Below the pieces are notes generated by a model. The model did not search any database. It had not been told where the DNA came from and worked only from the letters and a program-made list of their open reading frames with translations. From assembly GCA_903879985.1 (NCBI GenBank), contig CAIRNR010000007.1, positions 5,382 to 69,381 on the forward strand: 64,000 nucleotides of DNA, in the 5' to 3' direction. Position 1 is the first letter of the stretch. Each line of letters begins with the position of its first letter. Positions 1-17,571 of the stretch are shown in pieces. Position numbers and translations under genes: made by a program. Source of the DNA: an uncultured candidate division WWE3 bacterium. Its GTDB lineage: Bacteria > Patescibacteriota > WWE3 > UBA101185 > UBA10185.

Positions 1-15
1 GGCCACAATAAAGGT

Positions 16-996
16 TTAACTAATAAAATTAAACAAATAACCTATCAGCATTACTCCAACTAAAGTAATCACCAAAAAAACAGCTAAAAGTTGCCAACGC
101 ATAACCTTTTTAAGAATCATCAATTCAGGAAAAGACACAGTAACTATTGCCGTCATAAAAGCCAAAGCCGTACCAAGTGGAACACCTTTTTGAACAAGAG
201 CTTCCATAATCGGAATTACGCTTACGGAATTCGCATAAAATGGCGCACCAAGCAATGTAGCAACAGGAACAGCCCACCATGTTCGCATGGATAAATACTT
301 TTCAACCAATGCTGCAGGAACAAAACCGTGAATTAATGCGCCTACTCCAACGCCTAAAATTACATAAGGAAAAACACTTTTTGTAATTGTCATGCCATCG
401 GACCAAAAATACTTTAATAACTCTACTTTGGATAATGCAACTCCCCCATTATCAAACTCAAGCTGTTGCTTAGACTTAAACTTTAATAACTCCGGTTTAA
501 CATACTTATCAAGGTGAAGTTTATGAATTAGCATCCCACCTAACATTGCTACTAAAATTCCTAACAAATTATAAATGATTGTTACTTTTAACCCAAACAT
601 TGCAGGAAATAAATAAAGTGAGGACTCATTTACCAGAGGTGAACTTATTAGAAATGCAAAAGTAACTCCTAAAGGTATACCGGCACCAACAAAACCAATA
701 AATAACGGTATTGAGGAGCACGAACAAAAAGGTGTTACCACACCAAGTAATGCAGCGAATAAATAATCTAGTCCAAACCAACGACGCTTTGCCAAAATGT
801 CCCTAACTTTTTCCATAGGAAAGTAATAGCGCGTTATAGCCATAACATAGTTGATTACGATTAAAAGTAAACCAATCTTAATGACATCATATATAAAAAA
901 GTTGAGAGTATCGCCAAGGTAAGAATTTTCAGTTAAATTAAACCACTTATATGTTACTAAGTCGGAAAAAAGTTGTAGAGGCTTAAAAATATCCAT
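16..996 (-). CDS. multi-TM permease with paired CxC motifs (COG0701/DUF318-like 'predicted permease')
   Basis: 326 aa, strongly hydrophobic throughout, with a 'CSCSS' motif. ATG at 996 was checked. It is the last gene of an arsR / thioredoxin-like / permease operon. Confidence 0.55.
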   Translation of the reverse strand: MDIFKPLQLFSDLVTYKWFNLTENSYLGDTLNFFIYDVIKIGLLLIVINYVMAITRYYFPMEKVRDILAKRRWFGLDYLFAALLGVVTPFCSCSSIPLFIGFVGAGIPLGVTFAFLISSPLVNESSLYLFPAMFGLKVTIIYNLLGILVAMLGGMLIHKLHLDKYVKPELLKFKSKQQLEFDNGGVALSKVELLKYFWSDGMTITKSVFPYVILGVGVGALIHGFVPAALVEKYLSMRTWWAVPVATLLGAPFYANSVSVIPIMEALVQKGVPLGTALAFMTAIVTVSFPELMILKKVMRWQLLAVFLVITLVGVMLIGYLFNFIS

Positions 997-999
997 GAA

Positions 1000-1296
1000 T
1001 TAACAACAACTTCCGCCACCGCAACTACAAGAAGATTTTTGTTCTGTAACTAAAGCACCAAATAAAATTGATTTCTTAATCTTTTCTATATCCTGGGAAC
1101 CACCGATCATGACAGGTTTTCCATTTACTGTTAAAACCGGACTGGTCATTATTCCCATTTCGATAATTTTTGTAACATCGGTTATATATTCCAACTCGAC
1201 ATCATCTTTAAGAGTCAGTTCTGTTATAGCCTGCTTTGTTAACTCAAATAATTTTTTACATGTAGGACAACCTGAACCTAAAACTTGAATATACAT
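1000..1296 (-). CDS. thioredoxin-fold redox-active disulfide protein (Thioredoxin_3-like)
   Basis: 98 aa with a 'GCPTCKK' CxxC motif near the N-terminus and a C-terminal Cys-rich tail 'SCSCGGGSCC'. It lies 3 nt upstream of the permease gene. Confidence 0.7.
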   Translation of the reverse strand: MYIQVLGSGCPTCKKLFELTKQAITELTLKDDVELEYITDVTKIIEMGIMTSPVLTVNGKPVMIGGSQDIEKIKKSILFGALVTEQKSSCSCGGGSCC

Positions 1297-1310
1297 AAAA
1301 CTCCTTAAAA

Positions 1311-1622
1311 TTAATACAACTCAAATAGCAAGTCAGTAACCTTTTTACCTTTAGCAGTCAACGAATAGTAAACGTATAACCCACGTTTTTCATCAGAAAC
1401 CATATCAATGTCTTTTAAATCTTTTAGGTGATGCGAAATTAAACTTTGAGATAGTTCCAGATGTTCCATAATTTCACAAACACAATGATCACCAGCACGC
1501 AATATACAAAGAATTTTTAGGCGGCTTTCTTCGCTCACAATTTTTAATAATGCTGTAATTGTAGCTACTTGTTGTGATTCTTTAGACGATTGTTCGCAGC
1601 AACTGCATGAACTCATGTTCAT
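1311..1622 (-). CDS. ArsR/SmtB family metalloregulator
   Basis: 103 aa. 'RLKILCILRAGDHCVCEIMEHLELSQSLISHHLKDLK' matches the ArsR HTH with the metal-binding CVC motif. Confidence 0.75.
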   Translation of the reverse strand: MNMSSCSCCEQSSKESQQVATITALLKIVSEESRLKILCILRAGDHCVCEIMEHLELSQSLISHHLKDLKDIDMVSDEKRGLYVYYSLTAKGKKVTDLLFELY

Positions 1623-1740
1623 ATAGTATGTCGTCGGTAGAAGGAAGTCAATGGGAAATGGTTGAATTTTTTTGGGGTCGGTAGTGGAGGCTAATCTAAA
1701 CCAATTGGTTGATGTTTTGGTGATGTTTCAAAAAATTGAC

Positions 1741-1792
1741 TTCGCAAAAGAAAAGGCACCCTTATTTTTGTAAGAGTGCCTTATTTGGATGC
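1741..1792 (-). terminator. rho-independent terminator candidate downstream of the GC-rich gene
   Basis: An AAGGCAC...GTGCCTT hairpin, followed on the minus strand by TTTTCTTTTGCG. Confidence 0.45.
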
Positions 1793-1801
1793 ATATCTGA
1801 A

Positions 1802-2830
1802 TTACATGTGAATCATGCTTTCCAGTTTTACGCCAGATATTACCTTTCCGTTATTGATATCCCGTGCCTCGTTGCCTTGTCTGGCCTGTAGCACATAGGT
1901 ATCAGCCCTGATAAGTTGTCCCTCACGCCCAGTATCTCCTTCCAAAATCACACATTCGATGTATTCCTTTTGAAGGTTTTTTTCAGGGTCAGCGAGAAGG
2001 ACCAGCAGAACGTTATCCGCTCGTAAGAAAGCCGGTGTAGCCATTTTTAAGCCCCCCTCAACTTTCCACCAAACCTTCCGAGCCATGACGCCGATCTTTT
2101 CGGTACAGTCTTTGTTGCTAATCCAAACAACACCAACTGGATCGTGTTCACCAACATCGTCAAAGAAGACCGGTCCTTTGCCATAGGCATTGGCGATGAA
2201 GTTCAACAGCCCGTCGGGATCATCAGTAACGAAATCCCAATGTGCTGCAACATCATGCGGACCATCTGGGAACCATTGATGCTCACGATAAGTTCCATCT
2301 TCCATAGGGAAGTATGTACGATTGTGATCGCCCGGTACGTCTCTTATCATACCGTTTTCACGAGCTGCGCAGTTGACCCTATATGTTTCTTCATCGGGAA
2401 AACGCACGCCGACATGGTGAAGTTTGAGCGACTTTACCTCGCGATCATAAAGCGTCAGCAAAGCAAGCAGGCGATCGTGTTCTTGCGCCATTTTGCTTAC
2501 AGCAACGATCGTCCCGTTCAGTGCAACGCCGCCCATCCAATGAAGGCTCAGCTCATTGCTTTCGACTGGAGTCATCACGAGCTTTCCATCAAGACCAGCT
2601 CCTGCAAGGACCAGTTCGCCCATTTTACAGTAAGCTACATGCGGTGCGCGCGAAGTATTTCCTTCCGAAACGATACCCGCCCAGCCACCAAAAGCGACCA
2701 TATCACGGTCGGCTTCGACTGAGGCGACAACCACATAGGCGAAAATTCCCATTGCCTTGCACAGTTGTGCAGCAAATTCGTGGTTATCGTGGATACTCAT
2801 TACAGTATCAGCAGCATCTTCGTAATCCAT
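1802..2830 (-). CDS. hypothetical protein with atypical GC (likely start at internal Met 'MDYEDAAD', RBS AAAGGAGATGAAACA)
   Basis: The ORF is 1802..2950. An AAAGGAG Shine-Dalgarno sits in front of the ATG at 2830. The segment is clearly GC-richer than its neighbours. I recognise no family. Confidence 0.5.
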   Translation of the reverse strand: MDYEDAADTVMSIHDNHEFAAQLCKAMGIFAYVVVASVEADRDMVAFGGWAGIVSEGNTSRAPHVAYCKMGELVLAGAGLDGKLVMTPVESNELSLHWMGGVALNGTIVAVSKMAQEHDRLLALLTLYDREVKSLKLHHVGVRFPDEETYRVNCAARENGMIRDVPGDHNRTYFPMEDGTYREHQWFPDGPHDVAAHWDFVTDDPDGLLNFIANAYGKGPVFFDDVGEHDPVGVVWISNKDCTEKIGVMARKVWWKVEGGLKMATPAFLRADNVLLVLLADPEKNLQKEYIECVILEGDTGREGQLIRADTYVLQARQGNEARDINNGKVISGVKLESMIHM

Positions 2831-3033
2831 TGTTTCATCTCCTTTTTGATGATTGATTATTCCGCAAAATATTTGTTGCGGTTTTGGATAGCTAATATGC
2901 ACAATTATAAGTGAAAATAGCTTTTTGGTCAAACTATAGGATAACTGCACACAACAGTGTAGCTTCTAGGTAAAACTCTTCGGATCGATTATTCGTTTGG
3001 GTATACTGAAAAAGTTTCGATGTAACAATCTAA

Positions 3034-3150
3034 ATTACTTGGGGTGGCTTCCTAACAAAGTTTAGAACTGCAATTGAGGAAAACATTAACTACATTCCCA
3101 AATATCCAGAGTTTGAAGATGTAGCCATTTTGAACAAGAGATTTATATAA
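3034..3150 (+). pseudogene. copy 1 of orphaned 3' fragment of the serine-recombinase gene (…ITWGGFLTKFRTAIEENINYIPKYPEFEDVAILNKRFI*), begins at att core TTGGGGTGGC
   Basis: About 105 bp, roughly 90% identical to 4888..5004. The substitutions are synonymous or conservative in the + frame. There is no start codon. The core matches the antisense 3' end of tRNA-His. Confidence 0.7.
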
Positions 3151-3279
3151 CATTGTTCTTGTAACGCTGAAAACCACTGCAGTAACAGGCTTTTACTTAT
3201 AAATAATTTTTGATACAATGACGAAGTCAAATAACTTGAGCTGGAATGCTCTAAACCTAGTAGATAAAGGAGAAATACA

Positions 3280-3420
3280 ATGTCCAAAAATGGTCCTGAC
3301 GATGATGAAGATGAGGACACCCCAGATCCCGAAGACAACGACGCTGATGGTATCGGTGATGACGGTCAAGACGACTCGGGCGACGATGACAGTGACGACA
3401 GCGATACCGACGATCAATAA
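3280..3420 (+). CDS. 46-aa extremely acidic (poly-Asp/Glu) mini-protein
   Basis: A perfect AAAGGAG RBS sits 8 nt upstream of the ATG. The product is MSKNGPDDDEDEDTPDPEDNDADGIGDDGQDDSGDDDSDDSDTDDQ*. It is followed directly by a strong terminator. It is absent from the ORF track because it is shorter than 60 aa. Confidence 0.55.
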   Translation: MSKNGPDDDEDEDTPDPEDNDADGIGDDGQDDSGDDDSDDSDTDDQ

Positions 3421-3444
3421 TCGCTGAACTCGCAAAGCACTAAG

Positions 3445-3490
3445 TAGCTAGACACCAACCTAAAAGTTATGTCTAGCTATTCTTTTATTT
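3445..3490. terminator. bidirectional rho-independent terminator
   Basis: A perfect 10-bp stem TAGCTAGACA/TGTCTAGCTA with a 15-nt loop, then TTCTTTTATTT. It sits between the stop of the acidic gene (+) and the stop of the M16 gene (-). Confidence 0.65.
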
Positions 3491-3500
3491 GGCGTAGGTT

Positions 3501-4793
3501 TTATAGGTTGATTTTAATGCTTTGTACGAAAGCGTCATCTACAGAACCTGCTAAAGATAAATACCAATTGTTAGCTGTAAGGTATTTTTCAGTTACTCTT
3601 TTTATGTCCTCAATTGTTACTGATTCTACTTCTTTAAGGTAATCCTCAATTGTCCATGTATCATTTGGGTAATATAAATCTCTATAGTCATGCACATCTA
3701 CCCATGCTTCAGAGGTCTGCATCTTAGTTTTAGTTGATTTTGTTAGTCTGTTTTTAACTAATTGCAGTTCATCTGCTGTTGAACCTTCACTAGCCATTCT
3801 TTTTATTTCAATGCAAATTATATCTAATACTTCTTGCAATTTGCTCTTTGCAACCGATGTAGTTATGTTAAACGCACCGCCATCAACAAAAGAACCATTA
3901 TTTGAATTTATAGAATAAATAAGACCACGTTCGTAACGTAATTTCTTTATCAAAACACCTGTTCTTCCCCCCGCTAAAATACTTGCTAATAGACTTAGAG
4001 TTCTAGTGTCACTATTAGCCATATTCGGAGTTCTAAAACTTAAGCGGGTCTCTATACTTTTATTATCAAAAAAAGCGTATTCAATAACCTTATCCCTAAA
4101 AACGGGTAAGTCATTTTCAAAGATAGGTCTTTCGCCTTGAGGTAAAGATAGGTGCTTTTCCAATAGAGGTAGTAAGGTATCTTTACTTAAATCACCTGCA
4201 ACAATTATTGTAGCCAACGAGCTTTTAATAAACTTATGATAAAAACCTAGCATATCCTCTTTAGTTATACTTCCAATTGATTCTGCCGTGCCCAGATTGG
4301 ATTTTCCTACAACCGTTTTCTGATAAACAAGTGGTCTGGATATTTCCACTAACATTTTACTTGGATTTGATTTTTTAGATTCTAGCTCACGCAAAATTGC
4401 CCCACGCTCTTTTTCAATAGTTTTTTCATCAAATAGTGCATTTAATAGCACATCTGATACCAGTCTAATAGCCGACTCCGTGTCATGTGGGTCACCAAGA
4501 GAAACATTTATATCTAGCTTATCTGAACTTGTTGAAGCACCTATAGAACCTCCTAAGTCCTCAATAAAACCTGCCATTATATCTTTTGTAGGATAGGTTT
4601 TAGTACCTGCTAAGAGCATATGTTCCATAAAATGTGCTAAACCCTCTTTGCCTTCTGGGTCAAATCTTGAACCTGCAATAAAAGTAATAAGTAGGTGTAC
4701 AGGCATTTTAGTTCTATTAAATAGCACTACATGCGTTCCAGACGATAAATTAAAGGTTTCTCTTTTTACATTGAAGTCTTCTAGGGTAAACAT
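3501..4793 (-). CDS. M16 family zinc metallopeptidase (pitrilysin/insulinase-like), active-site HxxEH present
   Basis: 430 aa. 'HFMEHM' is the inverted zinc-binding motif, and the downstream E-rich region is typical of M16. ATG was checked at 4793. Confidence 0.8.
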   Translation of the reverse strand: MFTLEDFNVKRETFNLSSGTHVVLFNRTKMPVHLLITFIAGSRFDPEGKEGLAHFMEHMLLAGTKTYPTKDIMAGFIEDLGGSIGASTSSDKLDINVSLGDPHDTESAIRLVSDVLLNALFDEKTIEKERGAILRELESKKSNPSKMLVEISRPLVYQKTVVGKSNLGTAESIGSITKEDMLGFYHKFIKSSLATIIVAGDLSKDTLLPLLEKHLSLPQGERPIFENDLPVFRDKVIEYAFFDNKSIETRLSFRTPNMANSDTRTLSLLASILAGGRTGVLIKKLRYERGLIYSINSNNGSFVDGGAFNITTSVAKSKLQEVLDIICIEIKRMASEGSTADELQLVKNRLTKSTKTKMQTSEAWVDVHDYRDLYYPNDTWTIEDYLKEVESVTIEDIKRVTEKYLTANNWYLSLAGSVDDAFVQSIKINL

Positions 4794-4887
4794 ATTGCTA
4801 TGATAACACTATTTAGTATGCTTATCCTTTATGTTAGTTCTAACCTTGATTTGGGGTAATTAGTTTTATGTTGATGTGACAATTTAG

Positions 4888-5004
4888 ATATTTTGGGGTG
4901 GCTTCTTAACAAAGTTTAGAACTGCTATTGAGGAAAACATTAACTACATTCCCAAATATCCAGAGTTTGAAGATGTAAGCATTTTGAGCAAACGCTTTAT
5001 TTAG
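4888..5004 (+). pseudogene. copy 2 of orphaned 3' fragment of the serine-recombinase gene (…IFWGGFLTKFRTAIEENINYIPKYPEFEDVSILSKRFI*), begins at att core TTTGGGGTGGC
   Basis: The 11-bp core is identical to 17392..17402 inside the tRNA-His 3' end. The reading frame continues the serine recombinase ORF exactly (…SIWGG|FLTKF…). Confidence 0.7.
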
Positions 5005-5185
5005 TCTTTTCCGCTCCTATCTTCTTATTAAGCTCTTTTCGCTGTTCTGGTGTCATAGCTATAAATCTATCTATCATAAAATTAGCCAACTTATACATAT
5101 GCTCAACAGTTTTTACGATTTGTTCATCAGACATGCCTTTTGCAGTATCTCCAAGTATTGATTTAGCCTTTTCTAGCGTTACCAT
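4997..5185 (-). CDS. small hypothetical protein (62 aa; alternative start at Met18)
   Basis: The ORF is open, but there is no clear RBS. It overlaps the next small gene by 23 nt. Confidence 0.3.
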   Translation of the reverse strand: MVTLEKAKSILGDTAKGMSDEQIVKTVEHMYKLANFMIDRFIAMTPEQRKELNKKIGAEKTK

Positions 5186-5340
5186 CTGTTTCTTTCTTTT
5201 GAATTGGTTTGGTAATAACCTTCATAAAGTTAAAAAGTCTGTTTGCTTTATCAAAGGCTTCTGCGTCACTAAGCTCAACTCCAACCTCTTTTTTATAAAT
5301 CTGCTTAAATTCATCTATCGCTTCTTTTGGTAGTGTCATA
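5163..5340 (-). CDS. small (~59 aa) protein, paralogue of 14027..14218 (shared '…F(K)xxYxKxxGVEL(S/T)xxExxxKANxLxNF…')
   Basis: The start is placed at the internal Met 'MTLPKEAIDEF'. It aligns with the 63-aa product at the other end of the element. Confidence 0.45.
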
Positions 5341-5418
5341 CATAAAATAATACCCTCATAATGGCACTTCTGGTATATAATCCTGCTTAGGTATAGCAAA
5401 ATTAGGATAAATATAAAG

Positions 5419-6834
5419 ATGATAACTAAGACAGACTTTTTAGCTTATATAGACGCACCACGCCACTTTTGGGCTTTAAAAAACAATAAGTATGACCTAA
5501 CCCTATCCGATTTTGATAAACACCTGATAGAACAAGGCTACATAGTAGAAACTAAGGCGAGGGAATACGCTCAAAGATATCTGTTACCCAATTATTCAAC
5601 TGATGAAACTGACTTAGTTTTTCAAAGAGCTTGTGAAGACGGTGAATTTCAAGCTAGGTCTGATATTTTGATTAGAAACTCAACTACTAATAAATGGGAT
5701 ATTTACGAAGTAAAAAGTGTAACCAAACCTGAACCAGAGCATTATTATGACGCATGTTTCCAAACAATCATCTTTGAAGAGAACTTGGATATTGCAAATG
5801 TTTTTATCCTGCATGTGAACAATGACTATATACGAGAAGGTGATTTTGACTTGGGTTTGTTTATAAAAACAGAAGATGTAACTCAAAAAGTGAAAGAGTT
5901 AAAGGAAGACACCTTGAATAAAATGAAGGATTGCCTGTTTTTAGTTAGTACAGATAACTATAAACTCGCTACAGAGTGCTTCAAACCTAAGGAATGCCAC
6001 TGCAAAGAGCTTTGCTTTCCTAACCTACCAGCAGATTCAATCTACAATCTATCAAGAATTACAGAAAAGAAGATTTTAGAACTACGAGATAACGACATTT
6101 TGAATATAACCGATATACCTGATGACTTTAGTCTAACTTCAAACCAAAGGGTACAGGTGGCGGTAGCCAAAAGAAACGAAATACTTATAAATAAACAAGC
6201 CATTAAAAATGATTTAGAAGCACTCACCTACCCTCTATATTTTCTTGACTATGAAACCTACCCCTCTGCAATTCCAATGTATGACGGGTATAAACCTTAT
6301 CAACATATGGTGTTTCAATACTCACTACATATTTTAAAAAACCCAGACGATAAAGAGCTACAACACTACGAGTATGTTGTAACAACGCAAAATGAACCGT
6401 GCAAAGAGCTTCTAACACACATGAAACAGCATATTGGGGAAACAGGCAGTGTAATTGTTTGGTATAAACCATTTGAATGTTCCAGAAACAAAGAGATGGC
6501 AGAACTATGCCCAGACTTTGCTGATTTTATGGAATCGGTTAACGACAGGGTATACGACCTAATGGACATATTTAAAAATAACTATTATGTAGACCCAAAG
6601 TTTAAGGGCAGTAACTCAATTAAAGATGTTTTGCCTGTTTTAGTTCCAGAACTCAACTACAAAGCCTTAGATATTCAAAGTGGCACAATGGCAATGACTG
6701 GTTGGTACGAGATAGTTTATGAGAATAAAGACCAAGTAGAAAAAGATAAAATACTAAAAAATCTTTTAACTTATTGTGAGCAAGATACTTTAGCGATGGT
6801 AAAAATTTTGGAGTTTCTGACCAAGTTGGCATAG
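5419..6834 (+). CDS. two-domain nuclease: N-terminal Cas4/RecB-like PD-(D/E)xK domain + C-terminal DEDDy-type 3'-5' exonuclease-like domain (DUF2779-like architecture)
   Basis: The N-terminal part has 'DILIRN…WDIYEVKSV' (D…EVK) followed by a Cys cluster 'CFKPKECHCKELC'. The C-terminal part has 'LDYET', 'DLMD' and 'YCEQD', which match the ExoI/II/III motifs. Confidence 0.55.
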   Translation: MITKTDFLAYIDAPRHFWALKNNKYDLTLSDFDKHLIEQGYIVETKAREYAQRYLLPNYSTDETDLVFQRACEDGEFQARSDILIRNSTTNKWDIYEVKSVTKPEPEHYYDACFQTIIFEENLDIANVFILHVNNDYIREGDFDLGLFIKTEDVTQKVKELKEDTLNKMKDCLFLVSTDNYKLATECFKPKECHCKELCFPNLPADSIYNLSRITEKKILELRDNDILNITDIPDDFSLTSNQRVQVAVAKRNEILINKQAIKNDLEALTYPLYFLDYETYPSAIPMYDGYKPYQHMVFQYSLHILKNPDDKELQHYEYVVTTQNEPCKELLTHMKQHIGETGSVIVWYKPFECSRNKEMAELCPDFADFMESVNDRVYDLMDIFKNNYYVDPKFKGSNSIKDVLPVLVPELNYKALDIQSGTMAMTGWYEIVYENKDQVEKDKILKNLLTYCEQDTLAMVKILEFLTKLA

Positions 6835-6902
6835 TTACCAATACTAAGGCTTTTCTAAAAACTATTAGACTTGTAGAATGTTAATGGAGTTATTATATAA
6901 AT

Positions 6903-9257
6903 ATGAACACTATAAAGATTAAGCAATATCTTGATAAACAACAAATAAAGGTTGTAGAACTATACGATTTTGAAAACAAGAAGGTAAGGTATTCAGAAAA
7001 AATCAAGGGTTGGAAAATTGATAAATTCAGAGGTGATGAGGAAATAGTACGAGCTTACATTTTAGCTAAGCTAGTTAACGAACTAGGCTACAAACCAGAA
7101 AACATTGAGCTTGAGAAAGAATACGATATTGGCAGACCTAAAGTAAATAAACCCCGAATTGATATTATTGTTAGAGACGATAACGGAAACGCTTTTCTGT
7201 ATATAGAGCTAAAAAGCCCCCTAGATTACGAAAAAGACAAAGACGAGGTAATAGAAAAACAACTATTTAACCTAGCGTCACAAGAACAAGGTCAAGGCAG
7301 AAAAGTAAAATACTTAACACTATATTCAGTAGAAATTGTTAATGACGAAATAAAAGATAAAACAATCCTTATTGATTATGAAAAATTTAACTCCTTTGAC
7401 CAATGGAAAGAGATACGAAATTATGCAGATGAACTACCAATACGCTACGGAAAAGCCCAGAAAGAACCTTATGTAAAGGGCGGAAAGAAAGATTTAGATA
7501 GCAATTTTTCTCATACACAGCTAGATGCTTTGCGAAAAAATTTACATAATGTACTTTGGGGTGGTGGTGGAACAGACGACAATGATGTATTTTCCTCACT
7601 GGTTAATATAATTCTTGCAAAAATCCAAGATGAGAGTGAGAAAAAAGTTAGTGAAGTTTATGATTTCCAAATCAGGTCATATCAAGACGGCGACAGCTTT
7701 GAGAGCAATGACCAACTATTTGACAGAATAAATGCACTATATAGGAGAGCCTTACACGATAGACTTAATGTTGATGGAGCTAAAATAGCCAAGTCTTACA
7801 TAATTGACGAAAATAAATTTTCTCTTAACAAATTAAAGTACACAGTTTCAGAGCTTGAGAGATTATCATTTGTTGAAGGAAAAAATCAACTTACTGGAAA
7901 AGACATTTTAGGAGACTTTTTTGAGGGCATAATTAGAGAAGGATTCAAACAAAGCAAAGGACAGTTTTTTACGCACATCAATGTAGTTAAGTTTATTCTT
8001 TGGGGGTTACAACTGGATAAATTAGCTACAGAAAAGGTAAATAAGGAGCAAGAATTACCTTATATTATAGACCCAAGTGCAGGTAGTGGGACTTTCCTTA
8101 TTGAGTACATGAAGTACATTACTCAAAATATAAAATACCGATTTAAGAACAAGCTAGATACTTCATATAATATCCAGAAAAAACTTCAATCATGGTTTTA
8201 CCCTGATAATTTTGAGAACAAATGGGCAGAGCAATACATATACGGTAGTGATATTAACTTTAATCTAGGTACAGCTACAAAAGTTAACATGATACTACAT
8301 GGCGATGGTTCAGCTAATGTATTTGTGAAAGACGGATTATTGCCTTTTAACTTCTATAAGAATTTATTAGCGGATAGCACACCAGATAATACCTACTATG
8401 ATAAAGATGTAAACGGTAAATTTGATGTAATAATAACCAATCCGCCATTTAGTGTTGACTTAGATAACGATACAAAGAAAAGTGTAAAAAAAGACTTTAT
8501 ATTTGGGGATAAGAAAAATTCAGAAAACCTATTTATTGAAAGATACTACCAACTACTTAAACCTAACGGTAGGTTTGGAATAGTATTACCCGAAAGTGTA
8601 TTTGATACTACGGAAAATAAGTATATCCGCTTATTTATATACAAATACTTCAAAATTAAGGCAATAGTCTCACTACCTCAATCCACATTTGAGCCTTTTA
8701 CTAGTACAAAAACCAGTCTATTGTTTGCTCAAAAGAAAACTAAAGCAGAGATACAAGAATGGGATAGCCTTTGGACAAAGTATTCAAATGAGTGGAATAC
8801 TCTGAAAACTAGGGCTAATAATCTAGTGGACACATACACAAGTGAGAAGGATAGAAATAAACTAACTTCTATTAGAGACCTTAACGAAGGCGAAGAAAAA
8901 GAGATTCTTAATAAAATACTCAAAAACTACATAGAAAAAGAAGATGCTAACCTTACACCTAAAGCACTTGTTGAAAAGTATGAAGGTGAATTAAAAGAGC
9001 TTTGTAAATACGATGCTGACACAAAAGAAGCCTATGGCTTTGTAAATACTTGGTGGGTATTTGGAGAGGTTTCAAAAGAACTAAATTATAAAATTCTTAT
9101 GACAGAGATAGCTAATGTCGGTTACAAGAGAAGTAAAAGAGGCGAAAAGCCTATGCCAAACGAGTTGTTTAGAGAAGATGATAAAGGACAGGTTTTAGTA
9201 GATGACGGGATACTAGAAACAGCTTTAGACTATCTTAGAAATTTAGAGTGGGAATAG
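6903..9257 (+). CDS. BcgI-like type IIB restriction-modification A subunit: N-terminal PD-ExK endonuclease domain fused to gamma-class N6-adenine DNA methyltransferase
   Basis: 784 aa. The N-terminus has 'IDIIVRD…FLYIELKSP' (D…ELK). Methyltransferase motif I 'DPSAGSGTFL' precedes motif IV 'IITNPPFS'. A specificity-subunit gene follows. Confidence 0.75.
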   Translation: MNTIKIKQYLDKQQIKVVELYDFENKKVRYSEKIKGWKIDKFRGDEEIVRAYILAKLVNELGYKPENIELEKEYDIGRPKVNKPRIDIIVRDDNGNAFLYIELKSPLDYEKDKDEVIEKQLFNLASQEQGQGRKVKYLTLYSVEIVNDEIKDKTILIDYEKFNSFDQWKEIRNYADELPIRYGKAQKEPYVKGGKKDLDSNFSHTQLDALRKNLHNVLWGGGGTDDNDVFSSLVNIILAKIQDESEKKVSEVYDFQIRSYQDGDSFESNDQLFDRINALYRRALHDRLNVDGAKIAKSYIIDENKFSLNKLKYTVSELERLSFVEGKNQLTGKDILGDFFEGIIREGFKQSKGQFFTHINVVKFILWGLQLDKLATEKVNKEQELPYIIDPSAGSGTFLIEYMKYITQNIKYRFKNKLDTSYNIQKKLQSWFYPDNFENKWAEQYIYGSDINFNLGTATKVNMILHGDGSANVFVKDGLLPFNFYKNLLADSTPDNTYYDKDVNGKFDVIITNPPFSVDLDNDTKKSVKKDFIFGDKKNSENLFIERYYQLLKPNGRFGIVLPESVFDTTENKYIRLFIYKYFKIKAIVSLPQSTFEPFTSTKTSLLFAQKKTKAEIQEWDSLWTKYSNEWNTLKTRANNLVDTYTSEKDRNKLTSIRDLNEGEEKEILNKILKNYIEKEDANLTPKALVEKYEGELKELCKYDADTKEAYGFVNTWWVFGEVSKELNYKILMTEIANVGYKRSKRGEKPMPNELFREDDKGQVLVDDGILETALDYLRNLEWE

Positions 9258-9258
9258 T

Positions 9259-10653
9259 ATGGCACTGAAACAGTTTACAACTGATTTTAAAAGCATCGGT
9301 AACCAAGAGTTTCTAAGACCAAATGTCGGCTATAGATACTTTTTTGATATTAAAAAATCAATGGTATTTAAAAACCCGATAACTACCCAATTGAAATACA
9401 TATTAAAACCATTACTTTCAAATAAAATTCCAAAGGGTGAATTGGATAGTAGAGAAATTCTAGTTGATTTGGCAAACATTGAAAGAAGATACAACTCACT
9501 AGTAAACCTAGAGGAAGTTAATCAGATTGGCTCGGACAAAAATATACTAAACTTCGGCGATATAGTAATACCTAAGATTCAACCACAAATGGGTAACATT
9601 TTTCTTAATACCGACCATACTAGGTATGTAGCTTCAACGGAGTTGCTTGAATACACGGTATGCCAAGACCATAACCCAGTATTTGTTTACTACTTAATAA
9701 CTTCCAAACAATTTCTAGCTGACCTTGAGAGGCTTGAGGGTGGAAAAACACACAGGAGAGTAAATCCCACAGACCTTTTAAAAATAAGAATACCTACCCT
9801 TAGTAAAAGACACCAAGACCAAGTAGTTACCGAAATTGAGCCAATAGCCATAAAAATTCAGGCACTTAAAACGGATATTAAACCACAACAAGAAATTATA
9901 GATAAAGTTTTTGTACGGGAATTTAAATTTAATAAAGCAAATTTTGACCAACTATCAAAAATTAAAATGTATGAAACTACTTTTTCAGAGTTCGCAAATA
10001 ACATAGATGTTCGCTATAGCGTCAAATTCCATAGAAATGCTGGTGCATTTGTCTTAGCGGAATTAAAGAAAGTAACTAACAAAAAGATTAAACACTTCAT
10101 TGCAGAACCAATTGTATTGGGTACTAGTGTATCCCCTTCGGATTACGACGAAAACGGCGATTATTACTACATATCAATGGCAAATATAAAGAACTGGAAA
10201 TTTGAAAACGATGACGCAAAACTTGTTTCAAATGAGTATTCAAAGAAAAACCAGAATAAAACAATAGCTTTAAACGATATTTTAATTGCCCGTTCTGGTG
10301 AGGGAACAATTGGGAAAGTTGCTTTAATAGAAGATGAGGAACTACTGGGCATTTTTGCGGACTTTACAATGAGAATTAAGTTAAAAGACTATAACCCAAC
10401 ATTTGCCTACTACTATTTTAGAACAACTTACTTTCAATACCTGATTGAAATTAACAAGAAAGGTTTAGGCAATAACACAAACATCTTCCCAAGCCAAATT
10501 CAAGAACTCCCCATGATGGATATTCCATTAGCTAGACAAGAAAAAATAGTTCAAGAGATTAAAAAAGAGCTAGAAGAACAAAATGTTATTAGAAGTTCTA
10601 TAGAGCAAGAAAGAGCAAAGATTGATGAAATTATTGAGAAGGCAATACAATGA
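9259..10653 (+). CDS. restriction-modification specificity (S/B) subunit with two target-recognition domains
   Basis: 464 aa. There are HsdS-type conserved spacers 'IRIPTLSKRHQDQVVTEIE' and 'IPLARQEKIVQEIKKELEEQ'. The start overlaps the stop of the upstream gene. Confidence 0.75.
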   Translation: MALKQFTTDFKSIGNQEFLRPNVGYRYFFDIKKSMVFKNPITTQLKYILKPLLSNKIPKGELDSREILVDLANIERRYNSLVNLEEVNQIGSDKNILNFGDIVIPKIQPQMGNIFLNTDHTRYVASTELLEYTVCQDHNPVFVYYLITSKQFLADLERLEGGKTHRRVNPTDLLKIRIPTLSKRHQDQVVTEIEPIAIKIQALKTDIKPQQEIIDKVFVREFKFNKANFDQLSKIKMYETTFSEFANNIDVRYSVKFHRNAGAFVLAELKKVTNKKIKHFIAEPIVLGTSVSPSDYDENGDYYYISMANIKNWKFENDDAKLVSNEYSKKNQNKTIALNDILIARSGEGTIGKVALIEDEELLGIFADFTMRIKLKDYNPTFAYYYFRTTYFQYLIEINKKGLGNNTNIFPSQIQELPMMDIPLARQEKIVQEIKKELEEQNVIRSSIEQERAKIDEIIEKAIQ

Positions 10654-11378
10654 ACAAATTTAAAACATCAGCTATAACCATACTCACCGAAACAGGTAAA
10701 CCCCTACACTATAAGGAAATAACCCGTCTAGCACTTGATAAAGGAATTTTAGTTACTGATGGTGCAACTCCTGACGCTTCAATGAACGCCCAAATAGTAA
10801 TGGATATAAAACAAAACGGTAAACTCTCAAATTTTATTAAGACAGAGCCTTCCACCTATGGTTTAAACCCAAATATACAAAAAGCTGTTAATGAGCCAGA
10901 GGAAGACATAGCGCAAGAGGAAAAACAAGCCGTAGATAGCGGTTATATCGGAAAAGCAGGAGAATACATAGTGTGCAGTGAACTGCTTTTTAGAGGATTT
11001 AATGCCAGTATTATGAGTGTTGATACAGGTGTTGATATTGTAGCTACCAAAGAAAGCCGACTGTATGGCGTACAAGTAAAGACTGCAAGACTTAATAAGT
11101 TCAATACTTATGTTTTTGATGTTCGCAAGGTTTCATTTGAGAGACACAGTAGTGGTAGTACATTTTATATTTTTGTTCTATATAGCGAGAAGAAAACTAA
11201 TTTTCTGATTCTCCCCTATTTTGAAATTGAAAAGAAAGTACATGACAAAGTTATACTAGAAGTTGGTCACGGACTACGCTACAGAATAAACATTAAACTG
11301 CGTAATGACAGCGTATATCTTGGAACTTTAGACAATGAGATGAACTACTTTTTGAATAATTGGGCGGTGCTAAAGTAA
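10650..11378 (+). CDS. Mrr-like restriction endonuclease (HARE-HTH/Mrr_N winged helix + Mrr-type PD-(D/E)xK catalytic domain)
   Basis: The N-terminal 'GKPLHYKEITRLALDKGILVTDGATPDASMNAQIV' fits HARE-HTH. The C-terminal 'GEYIVCSELL…VDTGVDIVATK…YGVQVKT' fits the Mrr_cat D-x-G-x-D…QxK pattern. There is an ATGA overlap with the S subunit. Confidence 0.55.
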   Translation: MNKFKTSAITILTETGKPLHYKEITRLALDKGILVTDGATPDASMNAQIVMDIKQNGKLSNFIKTEPSTYGLNPNIQKAVNEPEEDIAQEEKQAVDSGYIGKAGEYIVCSELLFRGFNASIMSVDTGVDIVATKESRLYGVQVKTARLNKFNTYVFDVRKVSFERHSSGSTFYIFVLYSEKKTNFLILPYFEIEKKVHDKVILEVGHGLRYRINIKLRNDSVYLGTLDNEMNYFLNNWAVLK

Positions 11379-11496
11379 ACAACTTATTTAGGTAAAAACT
11401 ATCCCCGTATGACAACAAATAAATAGATTGACTTATAAAATTGCGGTATAATAGCCGTATTCCTGCCTATGTTAGTTAACGAATATAAATATAAAA

Positions 11497-12681
11497 ATGA
11501 CAAAAAGACAATTTACAATATCGCACTTTGTGCAGAATATAAACATAGACTTGCTAGAGGCTTATTTTAATCAAGCTAATTTACCTTTCCCAAACAATTT
11601 AAAAACTACAGACAAAGACAAAAAACCAAATGCTCAAGATATTGAAACGCTTATAAACTCACTTGAGACTAAAGCTCAAGAAAAAATAAACAACGATTTC
11701 ATAGATATTAACGAGCTGTCCTATGACGGCGGTATTCTTTCAATTATTGATGTTGGAAATGTTTACAACATCAATTTAACCGAAGAACTAAGTAGCCTTG
11801 AAGATAACACGAACCAAGCACTTTACTGCTTTCTAAACCATAAAGGGGTATTTGAAAACGCCTCAAAAATAGCTTACTTTGAAAGACTTTCATCAAAAAC
11901 TGTTAGAAACGATATGGTTAAAAAGACAGCACAAGAAGTCTCAAATGAAGAAGTTAAAAATGCCTTAGAAACCGAACTTAAAACATATTTTAAACAAAAA
12001 GACGGTAGAGGCGAAAATTGTAAAATTGATGTTACAATCTACAAAAATAGAGTGTTTTATCGTGCGTATCCTCAAAACTATTCCCAGTTTTTATTTGATT
12101 ACGATGAAGAAGGTAAATACAGACGAAGTGTAGTTAAACCTGTCTTTGAGGTTATTTTTATCTATTATCCAGACGATGGTAGATTAGAACTTAGTGTTAA
12201 CTTTAGAAATAAACGCAGACGAGAGCTAATTGAAATTTTTAGCCGAATTGTTCTAAAAGATGACCGCACGATTAAAGACGAACTGCAAACTTACGATTTT
12301 GACAGGATAGTTTCTCCTGATTTTACTATGCCCACTAAACTTGAAGATAAAGTATCTTGGGCTTACCTAAAGCAATTAAGACTAAGCTACAGATATACTA
12401 CTGCAAGAAAAATTACACTTGAAGTTGATGACAAAAATACCGATGGAGCTAAAGCAATTCACGAAATGATTAAAGAGTATGGGCTTAATACCGAACAATT
12501 GTTTGTAACTCAAGCAACTTTCAAGATTAAGTTTGAAGGAGCAGGTAATAAGGGTAGCGTCACAGCTATGATTACATATCCCGACAAGTGTAACCTATCG
12601 GACATTGCAACACACCAATTGGCTAAAGATTATATAAAATACTGGAAATTGGAGTTATCAGATAATGAAGGAAATAACTAA
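11497..12681 (+). CDS. hypothetical protein (394 aa), no recognisable motifs
   Basis: A long ORF with a perfect TATAAT at 11447..11452 upstream. It overlaps the next gene by 17 nt. Confidence 0.5.
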   Translation: MTKRQFTISHFVQNINIDLLEAYFNQANLPFPNNLKTTDKDKKPNAQDIETLINSLETKAQEKINNDFIDINELSYDGGILSIIDVGNVYNINLTEELSSLEDNTNQALYCFLNHKGVFENASKIAYFERLSSKTVRNDMVKKTAQEVSNEEVKNALETELKTYFKQKDGRGENCKIDVTIYKNRVFYRAYPQNYSQFLFDYDEEGKYRRSVVKPVFEVIFIYYPDDGRLELSVNFRNKRRRELIEIFSRIVLKDDRTIKDELQTYDFDRIVSPDFTMPTKLEDKVSWAYLKQLRLSYRYTTARKITLEVDDKNTDGAKAIHEMIKEYGLNTEQLFVTQATFKIKFEGAGNKGSVTAMITYPDKCNLSDIATHQLAKDYIKYWKLELSDNEGNN

Positions 12682-13600
12682 TTTCGCCAATTATTTAGCG
12701 GTAAACCAAGATACTAGCTTTTCAGAAAGTATTTTGAAAGTAAATCTACCAACAATTTTCCAAACACTAGTAGATAGAGGCATTTTAGCCCCTACAACAC
12801 CCGTAGATAGCGTGAGGTGCAAAGAATGTGACTTAGACCACCTAGAACAAGTAATTGAAGTAAACCACCGATACTTTACAAAATGCGAATACAGCGAAGA
12901 CGCCTCGTTATCAGAAGTTCAACTAGACGAACTAAATGGCTATCGCTTTAGTTTGAGTGCTTTACTGGCTTGGATAGCAGAAACCTTAGTAACGCAAACC
13001 GACATTAAACAATTGAATGATGCTACTTGGGGTATAGGCAAAAAGGCTACACAGAACATTTATTTTATTAAATCAATTGACCAGAAAGAAGCTCAAAACG
13101 AAGTAAAGAAAATTAACACCGAAAATAACATATTTCTATGGTTGGGAGTAAATTCACCTGTTGGGTATTCAACAACCGAACTAGTATCAATACAGGAAGT
13201 AATTAAAATTAGTAGTAAAGGCTTGGAAGTTCAAGCTATTAAAGTTAAATCTAAAAAAGCTAAACCAAACCAGAAAGATATTGTCTTAGATAAAGATATT
13301 GTAATAACAAACAATTTCTATCTTCTACTTAACCTTGAAAACGGTGCTTTTAATTATAAGGTAAAAACATTACCACAAACATATAGAATAGTTAGATACC
13401 TGTATGACCAAAGAAAATATGGTAAAGCGTATACCTCTAAAGAGCTAAGCGAAGCTCTACAATTGGATAATCCAAAGGTTATTCCAACCAGAATAAAAGA
13501 ACTAAACAACAAATGTGAGGAACATAAAGTCAAAAGTATTGTACTCACATACCCAAATAATACATGGGCATTAAACCCAGATTTAACTTGTTTTAATTAA
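12665..13600 (+). CDS. hypothetical protein (311 aa), possible C-terminal winged-helix
   Basis: GGAG sits 10 nt upstream of the ATG. The gene is translationally coupled to 11497..12681. 'YRIVRYLYDQRKYGKAYTSKELSEAL' looks wHTH-like. Confidence 0.5.
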   Translation: MKEITNFANYLAVNQDTSFSESILKVNLPTIFQTLVDRGILAPTTPVDSVRCKECDLDHLEQVIEVNHRYFTKCEYSEDASLSEVQLDELNGYRFSLSALLAWIAETLVTQTDIKQLNDATWGIGKKATQNIYFIKSIDQKEAQNEVKKINTENNIFLWLGVNSPVGYSTTELVSIQEVIKISSKGLEVQAIKVKSKKAKPNQKDIVLDKDIVITNNFYLLLNLENGAFNYKVKTLPQTYRIVRYLYDQRKYGKAYTSKELSEALQLDNPKVIPTRIKELNNKCEEHKVKSIVLTYPNNTWALNPDLTCFN

Positions 13601-13674
13601 GGTCACTAAAGTAGTCACAAAATCATAATGTGACTTAACATTTCCATAAATAAGAAAAATATAGATGTAGTAAT

Positions 13675-13706
13675 AGAGCCATATAGTAAGGCTCTTTTTT
13701 GTTTTT
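13675..13706 (+). terminator. rho-independent terminator after the 311-aa gene
   Basis: An AGAGCC…GGCTCT hairpin followed by TTTTTTGTTTTT. Confidence 0.6.
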
Positions 13707-13773
13707 ACCTAAAAACTTGACAGAGCATTTTTGTGACCAATATCACTAACGCATAGAAAGTTCAAAGATAAAC

Positions 13774-14037
13774 ATGAAAGAAAATAAAGATTTATTTACA
13801 ACATATAACCTAAACTTTTCGGCAGTTCTTATAGCTAGTGGCATTAAGTTACAAGGAGTTAATAACGGGCTTGGGTCTAAGTCTCTCTTTTGTTTTGAAA
13901 ATTCTCTAAAAATACAGGATATAAACGACAAGTATTGGAGAAAAGAATTAAAGATTGAACCTCAATTACTCTTTGATAGCTTGAAATTCCTTAAAAACAG
14001 ATTGTATAGCGGTTTGGAGAATAACGATGGTTTCTAG
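13774..14037 (+). CDS. small hypothetical protein (87 aa)
   Basis: The ORF is preceded by a TTGACA -35-like hexamer at ~13717. It overlaps the next gene by 11 nt. Confidence 0.4.
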   Translation: MKENKDLFTTYNLNFSAVLIASGIKLQGVNNGLGSKSLFCFENSLKIQDINDKYWRKELKIEPQLLFDSLKFLKNRLYSGLENNDGF

Positions 14038-14218
14038 AGAAGGCTTAGTGAAATTTAAAGAACTTTACGCCAAGCGTTATGGAGTTGAACTTACTGAAAA
14101 GGAAGTCTCCGAAAAAGCTAACCAATTACTTAATTTCTATCGGGCAGTTTTTAGAGAACCAACAAATATAAAAATAAATATAACCTATGAGCAAAAAATA
14201 CGAAGTAAGAAAAATTAA
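14027..14218 (+). CDS. small protein (63 aa), paralogue of 5163..5340
   Basis: Shares the conserved 'YxKRYGVELTEKEVSEKANQLLNF' block with the protein at the other end of the element. Confidence 0.45.
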   Translation: MVSREGLVKFKELYAKRYGVELTEKEVSEKANQLLNFYRAVFREPTNIKINITYEQKIRSKKN

Positions 14219-14603
14219 AACAAAAAGGTCTTACACCTTTAAAGAAATAGCAGATTTGTTTGATGTCCATGTACGCACTATTCAAGCATGGCATGTAGAC
14301 GGATTAGTAACTCTTGAAGGTAGTAACAATCCATATCTAGTTATGGGTATTGATGTACAAAACTATATTAAACAGCAAAAACAAAAGCACAAAGTAGCTC
14401 TTAAAGAAAATGAGTTTTACTGCATAAGCTGTAGAAAAGCTGTTACCCCAACAGAAGTTTTTTCAAATTCAAATGGTATCAAAATGGGTGGTAATAAACA
14501 GTCGGTTATATTGAGCGGTGTTTGCCCAACTTGTAACCGAAAAGTGAACCGATTTACAACAAACGAACAGTCTATTTTAGAGGGGAAAAGCAATACTATA
14601 TAG
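14187..14603 (+). CDS. HTH + C-terminal zinc-ribbon protein (excisionase/recombination-directionality-factor or regulator candidate)
   Basis: 'YTFKEIADLFDVHVRTIQAWHVDGL' is MerR/Xis-like HTH. It also carries CxxC…CxxC ('CISCRK…CPTCNRK'). It lies immediately upstream of the two recombinase genes. Confidence 0.45.
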   Translation: MSKKYEVRKIKTKRSYTFKEIADLFDVHVRTIQAWHVDGLVTLEGSNNPYLVMGIDVQNYIKQQKQKHKVALKENEFYCISCRKAVTPTEVFSNSNGIKMGGNKQSVILSGVCPTCNRKVNRFTTNEQSILEGKSNTI

Positions 14604-14659
14604 GCACTAGAATATCCCTTTGAAGACTGACATTAGTAATTAGTTATTTAGGAAACAAT

Positions 14660-15745: not shown

Positions 15746-15791
15746 TATAATTAACTTGATACTATAAACTTATAATTGTAAGGTTATTGTA

Positions 15792-17471
<1,680 letters not shown>

Positions 17472-17571
17472 ATAATAACCCTGCCATTATATCAGCAATG
17501 CGGATACGTCGCTAGGACGACTAAACAGCAATGCTGATGCGTCGCTAAGCCATGTAGCCACCAACGGCAAC

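Follow-up and report, generated by a model that had tools for sequence, protein, structure and literature searches.

Putative accretion of integrative elements, with a decayed remnant, at a tRNA-His gene of a candidate division WWE3 bacterium

The stretch of DNA analysed here, referred to as the window, comprises 64,000 nt (64 kb) of contig CAIRNR010000007.1 (assembly GCA_903879985.1) from an uncultured bacterium of candidate division WWE3 (Patescibacteria). It probably contains integrative elements stacked at the 3′ end of a tRNA-His gene, among them a segment of 1.85 kb that is the remnant of an older element, designated A, lying beside a newer, resident element of 12.5 kb, designated B. The segment is regarded as the remains of element A because it is made up of the displaced tail of a recombinase gene, a pair of cargo genes and a recombinase-gene stump. 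All positions are those of the window, and the recombinase tails at 3040..3150 and 4894..5004 are called copy 1 and copy 2, respectively.

In the proposed history, the elements would belong to a family from the Patescibacteria in which the gene for a serine recombinase spans its own attachment site. Integration would transfer the last 36 codons of that gene (the tail) to the far end of the element, leaving the gene body reading into the tRNA. Element A, carrying a gene for an acidic mini-protein and one for an M16 peptidase, would have entered first and then have lost almost everything by deletion, so that copy 1, the two genes and some 50 nt of recombinase gene were left. Element B would subsequently have entered the tRNA-proximal junction, creating copy 2 and pushing the remnant outward. 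We infer the order of these integrations, and likewise that the serine recombinase, rather than the tyrosine recombinase encoded next to it, performs the reaction at tRNA-His.

Repeated recombinase tails and the empty site of element B

The features on which this section rests are as follows.

3040..3048, + strand: core 1, a copy of the tRNA-His 3′ end, exact 9-mer TGGGGTGGC
3040..3150, + strand: copy 1, orphan recombinase tail of 36 codons plus stop, the putative relic left attachment site (attL) of an older element
4894..4902, + strand: core 2, exact 9-mer; the empty-site contig L001 places the element boundary inside it
4894..5004, + strand: copy 2, recombinase tail, attL of the resident 12.5-kb element, completing the recombinase open reading frame (ORF) in frame
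4903..17393, + strand: resident integrative element B, 12.5 kb, with restriction-modification cargo and a conserved recombination module
15792..17459, + strand: large serine recombinase gene, cut at the core and running antisense into tRNA-His
from 17394: core 3, the last 9 nt of tRNA-His and right attachment site (attR) of element B, from the ARAGORN and Rfam tRNA call
17394..17470, − strand: tRNA-His (GTG), the target gene (ARAGORN; Rfam RF00005, 62.6 bits)

A repeat search identified a direct repeat of 131 nt (3019-3149 and 4873-5003; spacing 1854), 89% identical with 16 mismatches and containing an identical tract of 51 nt at 3073..3123. It is the sole long direct-repeat family in the first 20 kb of the window. 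The initial annotation of this region had described a recombinase 3′ fragment present twice in direct orientation, with each copy beginning at the core; the duplication and its orientation were confirmed, but the repeat begins approximately 20 nt to the left of the core. The core itself, TGGGGTGGC, occurs exactly three times in the window (3040, 4894 and 17394), the last occurrence being the 3′ end of tRNA-His, and has no occurrence on the opposite strand anywhere in the 64 kb. When recounted against the tRNA sequence TTTGGGGTGGC, copy 2 matched at 11/11 positions and copy 1 at 10/11, as had been annotated.

Only two differences separate the copies in the first 30 nt after the core, and their similarity ends at the stop codon of the tail. 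Copy 1 has the open frame WGGFLTKFRTAIEENINYIPKYPEFEDVAILNKRFI, followed by a stop, and is 94% identical to copy 2 in amino acids and 90% in nucleotides. Eight codons differ between the tails, of which six are synonymous (stop-to-stop counted) and two conservative (A/S and N/S), in agreement with the earlier description of the differences as mostly synonymous or conservative. Under neutrality, an excess of synonymous changes of this size would arise with a probability of about 0.004.

That element B is a discrete unit follows from its empty site, which is present in L001, a contig from another sample (BUCK21-1 series). There, window positions 3119..4902 are joined directly to 17392..18151 with 100% identity. 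The whole 12.5-kb interval from core 2 to core 3 is missing with base precision, tail copy 2 included; tRNA-His is intact, and the cassette between the copies is retained, with its M16 gene approximately 100 nt away from the tRNA gene. Copy 2 is the working left end (attL) of element B.

It had been recognized from the outset that the two copies might reflect an assembly duplication. Such an artefact would consist of strain variants of a single attL stitched together in tandem. The data are metagenomic, and short contigs do break within the repeat; the short Logan contigs end within the identical 51-nt tract, as de Bruijn assemblies do at true repeats. Against an artefact, at least four independent assemblies span both copies in the same gene order, among them an independent ENA assembly (L011) that corresponds to window positions 1..7018 at 99.99% identity. 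Moreover, the two copies diverge by 11%, each has unique DNA of its own on its flanks, and related species have the same layout. The gene order of the window is reproduced in three long ENA/NCBI contigs besides L011, and the exact M16 protein is present on at least 17 contigs from several studies. An assembly artefact is thereby effectively refuted.

The recombinase family and the left arms of the junctions

The product of 15792..17459 has the three-domain architecture of large serine recombinases (Pfam Resolvase PF00239, 6.4e-21; Recombinase PF07508, 1.3e-08; Zn_ribbon_recom PF13408, 9e-11), and from reading the sequence we take its N-terminal YARKSTESEDRQ to match the catalytic-serine motif. 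In the integrated state the product, of 555 aa, ends ...SIWGGQRGSNPSPPLPQSGALTR before the stop codon. Joining the gene body (15792..17393) to either tail yields an open 570-aa protein that ends WGGFLTKFRTAIEENINYIPKYPEFEDV[A/S]IL[N/S]KRFI, followed by a stop. Besides this gene of element B, no recombinase fragments were detected in the window.

Homologues of the reconstituted protein were collected in a search of 5.8 billion proteins, and the counts given here refer to the 120 nearest (P0001-P0120). The recombinase of the window is a 100% match to P0001, which was present on 12 contigs, and the named homologues are from Patescibacteria. All 120 align only as far as the W-G-G codons, and no tail-covering match to an intact 570-aa recombinase was found in that search. 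At least 40 run antisense into a tRNA (example tails ...RRDSNPRPPLPQSGALTN) and a further 38 stop within 3 residues of the core, so that splitting on integration is the norm in this family; the split state accounts for at least 78 of the 120, and about 12 keep a different tail. The position of the junction within the serine recombinase ORF, at conserved W/M-G-G codons, is the same across the 120 homologues.

The orphan fragments of the window and the native recombinase tails have the motif WG.[LV]...[FV]RT.[IL] in common. This establishes the homology to recombinase C-termini on which the initial annotation depended. Because the two tails have this homology and differ mostly at synonymous positions, both can be traced to functional recombinase genes, and this part of the annotation is upheld.

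No description of a serine recombinase gene containing its own attachment site was found in the literature searched, and a serine recombinase family whose ORF spans its own attP (the attachment site of the excised element) at tRNA 3′ ends appears to be undescribed there. The excised attP form was sought with degenerate tail-pattern scans of genome, metagenome and viral contigs, which returned only orphan tails and chance matches; no relatives of the recombinase were found in viral contigs.

The sequence to the left of core 2 resembles the 3′ end of a recombinase gene, and that to the left of core 1 resembles the arm at core 2.

4842..4893, + strand: decayed recombinase-gene stump, left arm of junction 2, collinear with 17342..17393
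3018..3039, + strand: short recombinase-gene-like left arm of junction 1, 15/22 match to the left arm of copy 2

The alignment of 4842..4893 with the last 52 nt or so of the recombinase gene has a z score of 4.15, and 2/2000 shuffles reached its score. It pairs AAC..CTTGATTTGG..GGTAAT...TTGATGTGACAATT in the stump with AACCGCTTGAATTGGTTGGTAAT...TTGAGTGAAAATT in the recombinase gene, and the motif CTTGATTTGG is identical in the 3′ region of the recombinase gene of a related element (L031). The stump is non-functional, owing to indels and an in-frame stop. Junction 2 would accordingly comprise the older stump, the core and the tail of element B, which is the hybrid site expected between two stacked elements. 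Together with the empty site in L001 and the homology of the tails, the stump supports the view, already put forward in the initial annotation, of a tandem integration in which the older element was reduced to a recombinase-less cassette.

Stringently scored local alignment of the left flanks yielded no significant match; their homology emerged only when the alignment was anchored at the core or was global and collinear. In a core-anchored, ungapped comparison, the left arms of junctions 1 and 2 match at 15/22 positions (binomial P about 5e-4 at p=0.32), and left arm 1 has the insertions of left arm 2 relative to functional recombinase 3′ ends. By its sequence, left arm 1 is presumably the stump of a still older element, which suggests an earlier layer in the stack. 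The closest relative of element B, that of contigs L039/L040 (recombinase 83% identical), likewise adjoins a stump. Its attL left arm, ...GTTAAAATTCTATT, ends with AAAATTCTATT before the core and reads stop-NSIWGG, and its last 11 nt are the last 11 nt of the window recombinase gene itself.

Two other origins of the left arms were considered and rejected. The first was the 3′ end of a host membrane-protein gene, for in contig L008 an MFS-like ORF of 275 aa enters the flank; that ORF reads into a stump, because the flank (GATTTGG and ATAGGAA, separated by three gap positions) matches the 3′ region GATTTGGTTGATAGCAA of the L031 recombinase gene. The second was a recognition half-site as the sole cause of the similarity. 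Collinearity extends over approximately 50 nt, which is beyond a plausible footprint, and the left arms differ between genomes.

A further sequence was observed just upstream of the M16 start codon, at 4803-4814, where GATAACACTATT is orthologous to the tRNA-proximal flank AATAACACTATC of L008, where this flank adjoins the core and reads N-T-I-W-G-G. The window sequence could be another recombinase stump, of still greater age, which would mean that in the lineage of the window an additional element once entered between M16 and the tRNA gene and was then lost.

Origin, age and mobility of the cassette

The segment between the copies contains the following features.

3192..3219, + strand: promoter-like site, TTTACT-16-TACAAT with a TG extension, upstream of the acidic gene
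3280..3420, + strand: gene for a poly-acidic protein of 46 aa (24 D+E, 1 K+R)
3443..3490, + strand: hairpin (stem of 12 bp, -18.2 kcal/mol, z -3.4) followed by a U-tract; terminator lying between the acidic gene and the M16 gene, which are convergent
3501..4793, − strand: M16 (pitrilysin-family) zinc peptidase, 430 aa (Peptidase_M16 8.9e-24; Peptidase_M16_C 1.5e-29)

It is apparent that positions 3151-4841 hold the acidic mini-gene and the M16 gene only, with no recombinase domain; apart from the two genes and the terminator, there is about 100 nt of non-coding DNA between the copies. The acidic gene has the ribosome-binding site AGGAG 8 nt upstream of its ATG, and the peptidase has HFMEH at residue 54, so that, with the hairpin listed above, the contents of the cassette are as first annotated (an acidic mini-protein with ribosome-binding site and terminator, and an M16 protein with HxxEH). 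The 46-aa protein had no PHROG match. The M16 gene is single-copy within the window, and relatives of its product at 61-76% identity were found in Patescibacteria.

Some of these relatives lie in a similar setting. In L008 (M16 76% identical), the order is SBP gene, tRNA-His, M16, core CTGGGGTGGC and a tail reading WGGFLTSFRTAIEENIAYIPKCPRFENKRKLIIS to its stop; in L009 (70%), SBP gene, tRNA-His and M16 are followed by an acidic gene of 37 aa and a more decayed tail. The spacing from tail to acidic-gene promoter is conserved between the window and L009, as is the promoter motif TTTGATAYAATGAC, and the genes beyond the tail are different in each of the three genomes. In L004 (67%), M16 is two genes from tRNA-His and there is no tail, and in more distant relatives M16 is located elsewhere. 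A marine Patescibacteria metagenome-assembled genome (L016; JAHJEV01, 6136-7730) has tRNA-His and two direct orphan tails within 1.6 kb, about 0.47 kb and 1.5 kb from the tRNA core and with small ORFs between them; its three left arms all have CTAT[A/G]GG[A/T]T, and no recombinase was found in the 8-kb locus. Stacks of orphan tails beside tRNA-His are, in view of the layouts in L008, L009 and L016, recurrent. Judged from these sequence comparisons, the cassette remnant would predate the split of at least three species.

The tails are better preserved than such an age would lead one to expect. Third-codon positions of M16 are about 51% identical between the window and L009, i.e. near saturation, and the relic tails of the three species are about 75% identical and retain open frames of 34-37 codons; copy 1 and the L008 relic differ at nine synonymous and five non-synonymous codons. 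Open and conserved tails beside nearly saturated neutral sites imply that the tails are younger, or better maintained, than the DNA they bound.

Several observations weigh against the history proposed here. Copy 1, although 90% identical to copy 2, is only 68% identical to the L008 relic and 55% to the L009 relic; it is closer to copy 2 than to the equivalent relics, so that an extra step, such as gene conversion, is needed. M16 behaves as a host gene would: relatives at 61-68% identity are found in normal chromosomal surroundings that contain no recombinase, and the divergence of the cassette body in related species is similar to that of host genes. Left arm 1, which at 22 nt is too short for such a test, is not by itself significantly similar to a recombinase gene. 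In addition, large serine recombinases recombine only attP with attB (the chromosomal target site) unless a directionality factor is present, and integration beside a stump would formally be a reaction between attP and an attR-like site, which is not canonical. Finally, the cassette was never seen to be missing: a search anchored on M16, the left-hand HTH gene and the right-hand SBP gene, covering approximately 50 contigs from many samples, found the arrangement of the window, a break at the repeat or the state lacking B, and neither a cassette-free arrangement nor a join of the left flank of junction 1 through the core to the tRNA in any of them, although assemblies cannot exclude rare events.

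For the unexpected resemblance of the two copies, gene conversion between the direct repeats while a B-like element was resident is favoured. It would explain the indels shared by the left arms, the identical 51-nt tract and the ending of similarity at the tail stop codon. That the tail of copy 1 was instead kept functional, in order to complete the recombinase when cassette and B excise together, is of low probability. As regards the stump-side integration, it is possible that the family tolerates such left arms, that an intermolecular exchange between attL and attR took place, or that the tyrosine recombinase acts.

The last of these can be extended to the whole stack: elements would still have accreted in tandem, but through the tyrosine recombinase of element B (14660..15745), with the serine recombinase gene merely overlapping the site. 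The tyrosine recombinase gene is directly upstream of the serine recombinase gene in the window, in L031 and in L032/L039, and in L031 an HTH_17 protein (a weak Pfam match) adjoins it. HTH_17 is a family that we take to be excisionase-like. Targeting of tRNA 3′ ends and identity blocks of 10-12 nt are typical of tyrosine integrases, for which tandem accretion into attachment sites is also routine (PMC4383910; PMC5704250). The position of the junction at the same W/M-G-G codons in 120 homologues would be expected if the serine enzyme's own site were involved, and the tyrosine recombinase is on balance a rather unlikely agent.

A different objection concerns the cassette genes. M16 and the acidic gene could be native host genes that were always beside tRNA-His, copy 1 then being not the end of their element but placed there by rearrangement or duplication of attL, or by integration at a lost second tRNA-His followed by deletion. 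In relatives the M16 orthologue is a chromosomal gene, and four related genomes, the tail-less L004 among them, have M16 close to tRNA-His and the SBP gene; the same indels occur in both left arms, as they would in copies of one decayed junction. This account has to contend with the recombinase-gene stump between M16 and the tRNA core, and with the core and tail on the far side of M16 in three species, where the promoter spacing is conserved between the window and L009. It also needs more ad hoc steps, and the housekeeping-like cargo of L031 indicates that such genes do travel in these elements, which supports an origin of M16 as cargo. A native origin is, for these reasons, considered unlikely.

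The initial annotation had also raised the possibility that the cassette is a satellite borrowing the recombinase of the larger element. As an active, non-autonomous and cis-mobilizable unit, it would excise alone or with element B; copy 1 would in that case function as attL, its tail restoring the full recombinase ORF on the departure of cassette and B in a single circle. The exact core at junction 1, the near-identity of the copies over the first 30 nt, the open tail frame with its mostly synonymous differences and the full 570-aa protein formed by the recombinase body and copy 1 are all compatible with such activity, as is the far better preservation of the relic tails than of M16 third-codon positions. 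Cis-mobilization has been documented elsewhere, for tandems of cis-mobilizable elements (CIMEs) with integrative and conjugative elements (ICEs) (PMC5704250). However, no cassette-free junction was found among the approximately 50 contigs, and no attP-type or composite attP join in protein searches and pattern scans of three collections. The tRNA-side arm of the cassette is a decayed stump with indels, and the divergence of M16 and the acidic gene keeps pace with that of the host SBP gene, which points to vertical inheritance. The satellite proposal was therefore not sustained, and present activity of the cassette is judged improbable.

A more far-reaching version may be mentioned, in which the left arms of attP and attB are interchangeable, given that newcomers land next to stumps of previous recombinase genes, the full-length enzyme is made only from the excised circle, and loss of the tail acts as a directionality switch. 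The orphan tails beside tRNA-His would be kept open by selection or repeated conversion, since they could restore the recombinase gene on joint excision of a remnant and its neighbour. Decayed remnants would then be reusable, cis-mobilizable modules of cargo. The family does raise the question of whether tail loss controls the direction of recombination; this combination of proposals is improbable.

Comparison with known systems and other features of the region

The history of elements A and B proposed above gains support from the published route by which CIMEs accrete, namely integration, decay with retention of the attachment sites, and entry of a new element through the attachment site beside the target gene (PMC5704250), and the layout of the window corresponds to each of these steps. 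In tandems of CIMEs with ICEs or integrative and mobilizable elements (IMEs), such as ICESt1/ICESt3 of streptococci, a recombinase-less remnant with att-type ends lies beside a complete element, in the order target gene, new element, hybrid att site, remnant and outer att site (PMC5704250). Correspondingly, the cassette of the window has no recombinase, its derivation by decay of an integrative element is indicated by the stump (z 4.15), and element B (4903..17393) lies between junction 2 and tRNA-His. Both ends appear to be attachment sites, with cores at 3040 and 4894, an intact tail arm and, at junction 2, a stump arm. The streptococcal tandems involve tyrosine integrases and conjugative elements, whereas pieces of a serine recombinase gene mark the junctions of the window; cis-mobilization was not observed in the window lineage. 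Nor does element B qualify as an ICE or IME partner, since scans of ten of its proteins (Pfam or PHROGs) found no relaxase, coupling protein or type IV secretion domains, and no conjugation genes.

Composite islands of the staphylococcal cassette chromosome (SCC) resemble the window in their use of large serine recombinases, in tandem stacking at one chromosomal site, in restriction-modification and housekeeping-type cargo and, as pseudo-SCC, in recombinase-less units between repeated integration-site sequences, which is also the arrangement seen here (PMC6243372; 10.1101/336396). They differ in their target, the 3′ end of rlmH/orfX rather than tRNA-His, and in their recombinases, CcrAB/CcrC. 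To our knowledge, ccr genes are not split by integration.

The tycheposon arrays of Prochlorococcus, too, have tRNA targets and neighbours separated only by a partial tRNA copy; newcomers push older elements inward, and degenerate remnants carry fragmented integrases (10.1101/2020.12.28.424599). Of the 937 tycheposons, 910 use tyrosine recombinases, and the host phylum is different (10.1101/2020.12.28.424599). Their repeat is a partial tRNA of approximately 40 nt, that of the window a 9-nt core plus a recombinase coding fragment.

For an integrase gene containing its own attachment site, the closest precedent found is that of the SSV-type 'suicidal' integrases of archaea (PMC7253208). In these, the att site lies inside the integrase ORF and the two flanking pieces persist as relics, and in the window the ORF likewise continues in frame across the core into either tail. 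The SSV-type enzymes are tyrosine recombinases of archaeal viruses and plasmids and are disrupted by integration; the window enzyme, a bacterial serine recombinase, loses only its last 36 residues. Phage satellites (PICI/P4-like) carry integrase and regulation genes of their own together with genes for capsid or packaging hijack, and the cassette has only the acidic mini-protein and M16.

By analogy, then, the architecture matches a known kind, that of tandem accretion with decayed remnants as in CIMEs, pseudo-SCC and tycheposon arrays. What is new is its setting in Patescibacteria, a serine recombinase that targets a tRNA and is split when it integrates, the tails and stumps that serve as markers of layers, and the unexpectedly good preservation of the orphan tails. 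Patescibacteria have tiny genomes and their gene exchange is poorly understood. The empty site in the population shows tRNA-His to be a point of entry and exit for a restriction-modification island. Earlier arrivals would not have been cleanly lost, their gene-bearing remnants becoming fixed, as with the peptidase common to related species. Displaced tails and stumps could thus be read as a stratigraphy of past integrations and be used for mapping the growth of islands across the phylum.

The cargo of element B (5419-11378) is a type I/IIG-like set, comprising DUF2779, an N6 methyltransferase (type IIG/I-like), a type I specificity-like protein and a HARE-HTH/PD-(D/E)XK protein. It is accompanied by a module of seven genes (394-311-DUF5659-63-138-YR-LSR, where YR and LSR are the tyrosine and the large serine recombinase), of which the former is listed here.

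14660..15745, + strand: tyrosine recombinase of element B (Phage_integrase 8.4e-11; PHROG integrase families)

The module also occurs, with other cargo, in L031 and L032/L039, where the adjacent pair of tyrosine and serine recombinase genes is kept and the elements sit at tRNA-His or a tRNA-type core. In L032/L039 the cargo (68-8347) includes Mrr, an N6_N4 methyltransferase and ResIII; in L031 (136-5590) it is housekeeping-like, with a cation-efflux protein, an M23 peptidase, DsbA/DsbB and BacA. Two small ORFs near opposite ends of element B, at 5163-5339 (minus) and 14027-14218 (plus), are weak paralogues (about 37-38% identity, via cross-hits in L039) and might encode accessory or directionality factors. 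A tandem pair of 33 nt, 73% identical, is located at 17493-17558, in the interval from tRNA-His to the SBP gene.

No further tail or core was found within 5 kb beyond the left edge of the window. The region to the left of junction 1 (16-2830) contains an ArsR-like HTH gene, a thioredoxin-like gene, an ArsP permease cluster and a GC-rich ORF (0.45-0.49), which could be cargo of a still older layer. Within it, a C/G homopolymer run at 2045-2052 is one base off from four other assemblies of the region, with the result that the window has one fused ORF (1802..2830/2950, minus) where the others call separate genes of 260 aa and 80 aa; the difference could be a sequencing error or a phase-variable tract.

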